Positions 29,499 to 30,652 of a stretch of 64,000 nucleotides of DNA are shown piece after piece. Location: the IMG/VR virus record IMGVR_UViG_3300020450_000008, one strand, 5' to 3'. The notes under the pieces were generated by a model, which saw only the letters and a program-made list of their open reading frames with translations, was not told the origin of the DNA and did no database searches. Position 1 is the first letter of the stretch. Every line of letters begins with the position of its first letter. Source of the DNA: a virus (lineage: Duplodnaviria; Caudoviricetes). Position numbers and translations under genes: made by a program.

Positions 29499-29855
29499 AT
29501 GACAGAATTTAAGAACGGTGCAAGAAAATACGTATCACCAATGTATACACCAGTTATTGGTCCAATAAAAACTGGTTATGACGCTTACACAACACTACTT
29601 TCAGTAGAAAAGTCGCCACTTCGAAAAATGCCACCGATGGTTGGACATCTTGTATTCACAGTTTTAGCGTGGATGTGGAGTGGAATATTTGGACTTTACA
29701 TGGGAAGTTACATGATATGGGGAGTAAGTGCGGTAGGTCACATGCTTTTAATATCAGGAGCTTTTATAACCTGGCTTATATGGCAACAAGCCGATAGAGG
29801 AAATAGTGAAAAAGGATTCTACAACGGCAGAGGTGCTGGTGGAGAACATGAATAA
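29499..29855 (+). CDS. Hypothetical membrane protein
   Basis: Two hydrophobic helices; GGAG SD. Confidence 0.6.
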   Translation: MTEFKNGARKYVSPMYTPVIGPIKTGYDAYTTLLSVEKSPLRKMPPMVGHLVFTVLAWMWSGIFGLYMGSYMIWGVSAVGHMLLISGAFITWLIWQQADRGNSEKGFYNGRGAGGEHE

Positions 29856-29863
29856 AAAAAACG

Positions 29864-29892
29864 TTTACATTGTTTAAAAAATATGGTATAAT
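29864..29892 (+). promoter_or_regulatory. Early promoter of the ncRNA island
   Basis: TTTACA-N17-TATAAT. Confidence 0.75.
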
Positions 29893-29904
29893 AAATATAT
29901 TATT

Positions 29905-30266
29905 CGAACGGTGAAGCTGAGTTAAAGTAGACTGGACTCGGGGGCGGTACCCGACGGCTCCACCAAGAATACTGGCCCATAAGTAGCCTTCGTAGCGTCA
30001 TCCGGATGCCACCATTAAGTAGGTGGTTAGCAGTCAGACGACAAAGACAGTAAGATGTCTTAGGGTTTTAGAACGTGGCTTGGTTCTCCAGTATTCTTGA
30101 TGGGGCCGAAATAGGATCGACAGATATGGAGATAACGTGGAGTTCGACGGTTAATCGCGTCAAAGATTAAATAAACTAAACGCAAACGATGATTTTGCAC
30201 CTGTGGATTACGCCCTAGCGGCCTAATCGCACCGAGCCAGGAGGAGCTTGGGAACAGAATCCTCCA
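29905..30266 (+). ncRNA. ssrA: Circularly permuted (two-piece, alphaproteobacterial-type) tmRNA; outer ends approximate
   Basis: Acceptor piece ends TCGGG-GGCGGTA-CCCGA-CGGCTCC-A-CCA (CCA 29963-29965); coding piece starts GGGGCCGAAATAGGATCGAC at 30102; 7-bp acceptor stem with G3:U70; tag 30182-30226 = ANDDFAPVDYALAA*. Confidence 0.93.
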
Positions 30267-30270
30267 CGGA

Positions 30271-30476
30271 ATTTGGTCGACGGACCGAATAGTGTAGTGC
30301 AAGGAAACGCGTCTTACCAAGAGGCGTAACTTGATTGCTCAGGCGTGGTAGCCAGGTTCAAGGCCTAGCGGCTAAGAATCACATCACCATACCAGGTGGG
30401 AGTAAGTTCTGGGAGTTATGAGAGATGGTATCTTGAGCGACCCAGTTGGAGGTATACCCACAGTCCTCCCTACACA
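30271..30476 (+). ncRNA. Putative structured ncRNA (possibly manA-motif-like)
   Basis: GC-rich, no + strand ORF; helices ATTTGGTC/GACCGAAT, GTGTAG(30292)/CTACAC(30470), ACGC/GCGT, CTGGG/CCCAG, GGAGG/CCTCC. Confidence 0.5.
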
Positions 30477-30652
30477 GTAAGAACGATGCCTATGCTAATC
30501 TTTTAAAGTTTAAAGATTGGAGTTAATAGGTTCGGTTGAAAAAAATCGGTAAGATCGTTGGGGTGATGCCCTAATACATCCGCGGGAAGCCTATGGTTAG
30601 CTTCCCATCTTTATTTGAGTGATATATATTATTAATTTACTGGGAGATTATA

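Follow-up and report, generated by a model that had tools for sequence, protein, structure and literature searches.

The 64,000-nucleotide (nt) stretch of DNA analysed here (the window), which belongs to the viral record IMGVR_UViG_3300020450_000008 (Duplodnaviria; Caudoviricetes), contains a permuted, two-piece transfer-messenger RNA (tmRNA) gene at 29860-30268 on the + strand, and the spacer between the two pieces of this gene houses a structured RNA module. By comparing the spacer with its counterparts in other marine sequences, we found that the module has a conserved fold on the transcript strand, is constrained in sequence, is dispensable for the tmRNA and is exchanged as a unit. It is a structured RNA under selection that can be swapped between phages and forms a new family in a slot of a known type, and the idea of an RNA cargo is partly supported. 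An initial annotation of the window had suggested that tmRNA processing may release the intervening segment as a separate functional RNA, such as a small RNA (sRNA), a decoy or a ribozyme. The notion of a discrete, conserved and structure-constrained RNA without which the tmRNA can do was borne out, in that a sister phage (L130) carries only an empty hairpin at this place. The roles suggested for it found little backing, as no ribozyme or sRNA family of Rfam was matched and no target complementarity beyond chance was detected.

The identity of the host gene is well established. Both RF01849 (alpha_tmRNA, 117 bits) and RF04321 (tmRNA_permuted, 104 bits) match it with scores that far exceed their gathering scores. 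The T-arm, the acceptor 3' strand and CCA all lie upstream of G1, the third base of the coding piece forms a G-U pair and a tag frame follows downstream, all of which agree with a permuted two-piece tmRNA, whose definition here included a tag reading frame ending in ALAA. According to the alignments with the two Rfam models and direct reading of the sequence, the acceptor piece (T-arm, acceptor 3' strand, discriminator A and CCA) occupies 29904-29965 and ends in CTCCACCA, with CCA at 29963-29965. The coding piece occupies 30102-30268 and starts with GGGGCCG at G1 (30102), the third base of which is the G of the G-U pair. Its tag frame, read directly from the sequence, lies at 30182-30223, encodes ANDDFAPVDYALAA and is followed by a stop codon at 30224-30226. 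The 136 nt between CCA and G1 (29966-30101) represent the intervening sequence of the permuted tmRNA and are located outside the mature-RNA models, in both of which 29982-30086 appears as an unaligned insertion.

Several general features of this spacer had been recognized in the initial annotation and were confirmed, including its length of 136 nt (CCA ends at 29965 and G1 is 30102), a perfect 12-bp closing helix (29964-29975/30088-30099), which incorporates the C and A of the CCA end, and a raised GC content (45.6% in the spacer vs 33.4% in the window). The segment 29964-30099 folds at -44.6 kcal/mol (z = -4.15), and none of 200 shuffled sequences folded as well. It had also been stated that such spacers are short in model alphaproteobacteria, which agrees with a comparison of 116 alphaproteobacterial species sharing an identical T-arm pattern and 112 measured viral loci. 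Bacterial spacers have a median length of 28 nt and a maximum of 83 nt (n = 116), so that the spacer examined here is longer than every one of them, and the viral spacers have a median of 67 nt, with 28 of the 112 loci reaching at least 100 nt.

Relatives were collected by using a pattern for the T-arm and acceptor, which retrieved 120 viral loci, and insert patterns based on the block around the last hairpin of the module (30066-30087), which retrieved four viral and seven metagenome loci, every one within a tmRNA gene. No match of the insert pattern was present in 185,579 species genomes, and none of 50,697 phage records matched the spacer part of the query. Four insert variants of 100-154 nt, coming from independent marine data sets (viromes and metagenomes), could be distinguished: type A (136 nt; the window, L133 and L136), type B (154 nt; the L121 group), type C (100 nt; L013, L137 and L123) and type D (139 nt; the L124 group). 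When a covariance model of the module (R1) was run against the window and 137 viral loci, it recovered its own family only, and no second copy was found (one copy per locus); a pattern search for the same closing helix with other cargo returned only known loci and chance matches. Membership of a dispersed mobile element, such as a miniature inverted-repeat transposable element (MITE) or a repetitive extragenic palindromic (REP)-like element, is not supported by a distribution of one copy per locus, with all seven metagenome matches in tmRNA genes and none in the genome collection.

The most informative relative is L130, whose spacer is an empty 26-nt hairpin, AGAGTACTGG-AT-CCAGTATTCTTGAT. Compared with the module carriers L013 and L137, it has an identical acceptor piece, approximately 97% identical flanks and the same neighbouring genes, and the indel between them coincides exactly with the loop of the closing helix, hereafter P1. 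It follows that the inner 74-128 nt are optional and that P1 is a part of the tmRNA gene, and on this comparison the inner segment is dispensable cargo lodged in a hairpin loop. In addition, type C is found in two genomic backbones, where its copies differ at 2 of 93 aligned positions and the 5' parts of the acceptor piece differ more. Such a near-identity between more divergent surroundings indicates that the spacer module has probably been exchanged as a cassette.

With regard to structure, the variants share a fold composed of P1, P2, a variable-length P3, P4 and P5, on which a hand-built structure and RNAalifold agree. In the comparative fold, 99.6% of 228 cells (seven distinct rows) pair and eight pairs carry changes in both partners; P4 contributes four of these, P3 two, and P1 and the acceptor stem one each. 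Control structures slid by 1-3 columns showed 33-46% pairing and 0-1 doubly changed pairs. As its G-U pairs are confined to the + strand, the fold is a property of the transcript. The initial annotation had treated a lack of structural conservation among relatives as evidence against a cargo, and this comparison reveals that the structure is conserved.

The elements of the fold differ in the way they vary. P1, which belongs to the basal hairpin retained by the relative without cargo (5' strand 29964-29975; 3' strand 30088-30099, followed by AT at 30100-30101 before G1), shows compensatory changes at one counted pair and at one further pair in variant D. Stacked directly on it is the invariant P2, in which CCC (29976-29978) pairs with GGG (30063-30065). 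The following junction strand, J2/3 (TAGCCTTCRTAGC, 29984-29996), is invariant except for its R position, and its final C (29996) opens P3. P3 (29996-30040) is an arm of 9, 38, 45 or 63 nt among the four variants that folds in each of them on a conserved base, CGTC/GACG, two base pairs of which covary. P4 (30044-30061) is a 6-bp hairpin, AAGACA/TGTCTT, with the loop GTAAGA; at four of its pairs both bases differ between variant groups, and GTMAGA is the conserved form of the loop. A TTTT linker (TTTY across types) and the P5 hairpin, AGAAC/GTTCT with the loop GTGGCTTG, form a near-invariant block at 30066-30087.

Among the inner helices that the initial annotation had listed, AGACA/TGTCT corresponds to P4 and is strongly supported by covariation, and AGAAC/GTTCT is the invariant P5 (30070-30087). 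GCCACC/GGTGGT (30008-30027) is real in this phage but represents the tip of the P3 arm, which is specific to this variant and is replaced or absent in relatives. As to CCC(A)TAAG/CTTAGGG, its CCC/GGG part is conserved as P2, whereas the TAAG/CTTA part is no better than in shuffled sequences and competes with the outer pairs of P4. The single-sequence minimum-energy fold was set aside in favor of the comparative one, as its AGCC/GGCU and CGT/ACG helices are lost in variant C. AGCC/GGCU might still form a pseudoknot between J2/3 and the P5 loop, a possible arrangement in which both sides are invariant. It was also observed that P3 contains an 8-nt palindrome, ATCCGGAT at 30000-30007 in type A and GCCCGGGC at the same position in type B (L121), which is retained although the outer two base pairs differ between the two types; possible explanations are a mini-hairpin, a site of dimerisation or a site acting at the DNA level.

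Constraint is not limited to pairing. The J2/3 block is identical at 12 of 13 positions across all four variant types, and the block of approximately 30 nt around P5 has one changed base (T/C in the linker) and a 2-nt loop insert, both of them in variant D. By comparison, the four-fold degenerate sites of an adjacent 118-codon gene in the same phages are only 64-84% identical (i.e., they differ by 16-36%), and P4 has changed at four of its pairs while the J2/3 and P5 blocks remained nearly fixed. Thus, selection acts on the sequence as well as on pairing, and conservation of the J2/3 and P5 blocks to this degree would not be expected of neutral filler.

Known classes of spacer content were also considered. 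Rfam 15 (ribozymes, riboswitches, sRNAs, Y RNA, 6S and others) was scanned with three variants, permissive filters and E-values up to 10, as had been suggested in the initial annotation; only noise of 8-15 bits was obtained and no family matched the module. ARAGORN at the 80% threshold found no tRNA in the spacers of seven variants, and at the 60% threshold a spurious match appeared in one variant type only. To count as protein-coding, a spacer had to be occupied for the most part by an open reading frame (ORF) that has a start codon and a ribosome-binding site and recurs in relatives. All + frames of the present spacer contain stops, and its sole ATG frame (15 codons) sits in a part without counterpart in variant C. 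An internal middle-type promoter was not supported either, since the promoter scan lists no + strand site within the spacer.

The window resembles the genomes of marine T4-like myophages: its primase-helicase is approximately 71% identical to that of cyanophage P-TIM68, and SsrA of the OM43 phage Melnitz shares 72% identity with the tmRNA coding piece. It has been reported that Melnitz and its relatives have two-piece tmRNAs of the alphaproteobacterial type, the spacer not being discussed, and that a glutamine riboswitch lies beside the tmRNA of Melnitz (PMC9004378). A sigma-70-type, early-like promoter (TTTACA, 17 nt, TG-TATAAT; 29864-29892, + strand) with 11 of 12 consensus matches and an extended -10 element precedes the gene here and is kept in relatives. 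Downstream, a manA RNA motif (RF01745; 30271-30479, + strand; 69.7 bits vs a gathering score of 55.2), which is not part of the cargo, adjoins the coding piece with a 2-nt gap, and no ORF is present between it and a terminator-like hairpin, GGGAAGC/GCTTCCC, followed by a T-rich tail (30584-30616, + strand). This hairpin was read from the sequence, is kept in L124 and is probably the end of the RNA unit; the terminator scanner did not list it, which is attributed to its 9-nt loop. Taken between the promoter and this hairpin, the unit, including the manA RNA motif, is all RNA.

Additional observations concern the surroundings of this unit. The second module-carrying backbone (L137, L130) is without manA RNA, and in Melnitz a glutamine-riboswitch-like sequence occupies the equivalent place. 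A conserved box, GGGTGATGCCYTAATACATCCG, followed by a hairpin was found in the window (30561-30616), in L124 (3984-4030) and in Melnitz (L258; 957-1000). The stem after the box differs compensatorily between the window phage (GGAAGC/GCTTCC) and Melnitz (ATAGTC/GACTAT), with the loop GGTTA retained. The combined element matches no Rfam family; it might act as a conserved terminator or represent some other small RNA element at the end of the tmRNA unit. Under default settings, ARAGORN reported neither a tmRNA nor a tRNA gene anywhere in the window, and under relaxed settings it produced wrong models for the tmRNA, presumably owing to the long spacer. Annotation pipelines based on this program will therefore overlook tmRNA genes of this kind.

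Expression was approached by comparing 29800-30560 with marine metatranscriptome contigs (contigs, not raw reads) of four runs/studies. RNA contigs of 100% identity span at most 30173-30545, which comprises the tag region, the 3' part of the coding piece and the manA RNA. The spacer and the adjoining mature parts of the tmRNA lie outside this coverage, and the contigs speak neither for nor against a stable product. Apparent joints across the spacer in some contigs derive from the short-spacer tmRNAs of other organisms. Overall, these data are compatible with expression of the unit, and contigs as such prove neither transcription nor RNA ends.

We lean slightly towards the view that the module is an RNA acting through its invariant blocks, with the tmRNA gene serving merely as a vehicle for its expression and processing. 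On this view the spacer consists of two layers, an outer P1 that is the basal hairpin of the tmRNA gene and an inner, clade-specific, non-coding structured module (29976-30087). The latter comprises CCC/GGG on P1, a near-invariant junction strand, an arm of variable length, a hairpin that covaries and has the loop GUMAGA, and a 3' hairpin that is invariant. Variation in the length of P3 on a conserved, covarying base resembles what is seen in many functional RNAs. The module would be transcribed from the early-type promoter at a rate exactly equal to that of the tmRNA, and the cuts that mature both tmRNA pieces could also free it. RNase P, whose cleavage at G1 has been stated for permuted tmRNAs in general (PMC11915505), would cut at one end. 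The CCA end may be freed by an endonucleolytic cut and then trimmed, possibly after a double-strand cut in the acceptor-P1 helix, given that P1 on the acceptor stem makes a helix of approximately 20 bp with no single strand after CCA. The product is expected to be a compact RNA of approximately 110-136 nt, protected by a terminal helix (what remains of P1), which may bind a protein or another RNA through the invariant blocks.

Several points weigh against this view. Only four independent variant types are available, which makes the covariation statistics weak; several of the double changes share one branch, and P2 and P5 never vary and hence offer covariation nothing to act on. Complementarity of the reverse complements of the invariant blocks to targets in the window was no better than that of shuffles, and the same was true for predicted duplexes between the module and the rest of the transcript. 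Moreover, the module was found only within tmRNA spacers (7 of 7 metagenome matches and 0 in 185,579 species genomes), which a tmRNA-tied role fits at least as well as a free-standing one, with near-exact search patterns that distant relatives elsewhere could escape. We infer the excision route, the accumulation and stability of the product and its action in trans.

A more ambitious form of the same idea is that the excised spacer serves phages as a general delivery slot. In this clade, it would supply, one-for-one with the tmRNA, a structured RNA that belongs to a new class and acts in trans as a decoy, as a sponge for proteins or as a regulator of RNA from the host or the phage; tRNA-processing enzymes of the host would free it. 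This extension is offered tentatively and is more doubtful than the role as an RNA acting through its invariant blocks. In a bolder form, the module might itself gate the maturation of the tmRNA, as an aptamer or ribozyme of a new kind.

The main rival is a role in cis, in which the module controls cutting of the tmRNA precursor, by docking of a nuclease or protein, by ligand sensing or by holding the pieces together, and is degraded after excision. The restriction of the module to tmRNA spacers would be accounted for in this way, and P1 sequesters the C and A of CCA and prolongs the acceptor stem into a long, near-continuous helix. Besides, a junction of several helices whose junction bases are invariant and whose peripheral arm varies has the typical look of an aptamer, and riboswitch-like RNAs lie close by (the neighbouring manA RNA in the window and the glutamine riboswitch beside the tmRNA of Melnitz; PMC9004378). 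However, the sister phage L130 has the same tmRNA without the module, which is likewise missing from most phage spacers and from all bacterial ones; it is therefore not required for maturation. Furthermore, no known aptamer or ribozyme family was matched in Rfam and no obvious alternative pairing that could switch P1 was found. On balance, we consider an action in cis unlikely.

The remaining explanations are less likely than a role in cis. It could be supposed that the module is a selfish or neutral passenger that spreads by recombination in the conserved flanks and keeps its fold only to spare the folding and processing of the precursor, itself serving no purpose for the phage. Presence/absence polymorphism at near-identical loci and the same cassette in two backbones would fit such a passenger; phage spacers hold many unrelated inserts, including small ORFs, so the site tolerates insertions, and intervening sequences of 23S rRNA are regarded as selfish (PMC4990558). 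Nevertheless, approximately 40 nt of the module, many of them predicted to be unpaired, are near-invariant against a neutral-site difference of 16-36%, for which the constraint of a compact fold is insufficient. The distribution is neither multi-copy nor dispersed (one copy per locus and none elsewhere in the window or the 137 viral loci), and the module is without a transposase, a nuclease or repeat ends, all of which makes the passenger explanation quite improbable. Finally, the idea that the conserved blocks are a DNA-level signal, e.g., an internal promoter or protein-binding site driving the coding piece separately, draws on the invariant 3' block lying 15-40 bp upstream of G1 and a TAnnnT-like hexamer noticed by eye (TATTCT, 30091-30096, 5 nt before G1), but it seems highly improbable, given that the scan shows no + strand promoter inside the spacer, that TATTCT lies within P1 and is found just as well in L130, which has no cargo, and that compensatory changes and strand-specific G-U pairs indicate an RNA fold.

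The spacers of other phages provide a broader context for an RNA cargo of this kind. A closing helix of at least 8 bp is present in 64 of 81 phage spacers vs 19 of 109 bacterial ones (median 11 bp vs 5 bp), and a long closing helix is generally a trait of phage tmRNA genes. Among the longest viral spacers, most are rich in AT and taken up by small ORFs, and among those of 60-110 nt, many lack an ORF and are structured. At many viral loci (L034, L035, L057, L095, L104, L105, L113, L114, L053, L062, L066, L117, L091, L032 and L003), the spacer is AT-rich and 70-90% of it is filled by a small ORF of 29-75 codons, which frequently has a ribosome-binding site. The spacer of Melnitz (L258; Methylophilales phage Melnitz-1, MZ577095.1, 472-612) is approximately 140 nt long and begins with GGAGAAGTATATG, i.e., a ribosome-binding site and ATG, from which an ORF may run on towards the coding piece. 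Other ORF-free spacer families include L030, L072, L096 and L116 (105-109 nt), L018, L019 and L108 (74 nt), and L041, L092, L094, L099, L111, L119 and L120 (65-67 nt). Their inner hairpins show seemingly compensatory changes, suggesting that non-coding structured cargo is probably not unique to this clade.

The spacers of tmRNA genes have so far been treated as throw-away loops, and the present analysis shows that in marine T4-like phages such a loop can accommodate a non-coding RNA that is under selection and exchangeable. Considered alongside the protein-coding inserts of other spacers, this points to a general design in which a stable-RNA gene, with its strong early promoter and built-in host processing sites, serves as a vehicle for extra products. 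It also suggests a natural scaffold by which a small RNA could be co-expressed in a fixed ratio with a stable RNA, and the module offers a concrete new RNA family for functional testing. If the module were a passive passenger, the value of these results would lie mainly in annotation.

Comparison with known systems helps to place the module. Like the intervening sequences of permuted tmRNAs in general (RF01849, RF04321; PMC11915505), it lies between CCA and G1 and is absent from the mature tmRNA. In the 116 alphaproteobacterial species compared, this spacer is a short hairpin, whereas here the loop holds a conserved RNA of several helices, which does not represent a tRNA or a repeat. Odd tmRNA spacers are on record, one with an intact tRNA-Ala gene and one with a repetitive element (PMC11915505); in the literature searched, these two were the only contents mentioned inside tmRNA spacers, and a spacer RNA family such as the present one was not found. 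The ORF-carrying phage spacers share the same slot, the same long closing helix and the swapping of contents as a unit between related phages. They differ in being AT-rich and in being mostly filled by an ORF with a ribosome-binding site, while the present insert has stops in all frames, a higher GC content and covariation at the RNA level.

Further parallels come from other stable RNAs. The intervening sequences of 23S rRNA, such as that of Coxiella burnetii, are likewise optional, closed by a helix, removed during maturation with the RNA left in pieces, and patchy in distribution (PMC4990558). RNase III excises them and the ends are not rejoined; they are considered selfish, and in some cases carry an ORF (PMC4990558). 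The host RNA is different in the present case, in which RNase III might cut P1, a helix of 12 bp that extends to approximately 20 bp when stacked on the acceptor stem. That a product left over from the processing of tRNA-type transcripts can have its own function in trans is exemplified by the 3' external transcribed spacer of Escherichia coli glyW-cysT-leuZ (PMC8383071), a short sponge RNA that base-pairs with known sRNAs, in contrast to the module, which has no known partner. Phage T4 makes the small RNAs RNAC and RNAD, whose roles are unknown, from its tRNA region (PMC3014915). These RNAs lie beside tRNAs and not in a permuted tmRNA, have no detectable sequence or Rfam relation to the module and have been experimentally shown to accumulate, whereas the module is known here from sequence alone. 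Nevertheless, as non-coding RNAs of approximately 100-140 nt located beside tRNA-type genes in a T4-like phage (PMC3014915, PMC9697503), RNAC and RNAD may be regarded, by analogy, as the nearest precedent for the module in a related phage.
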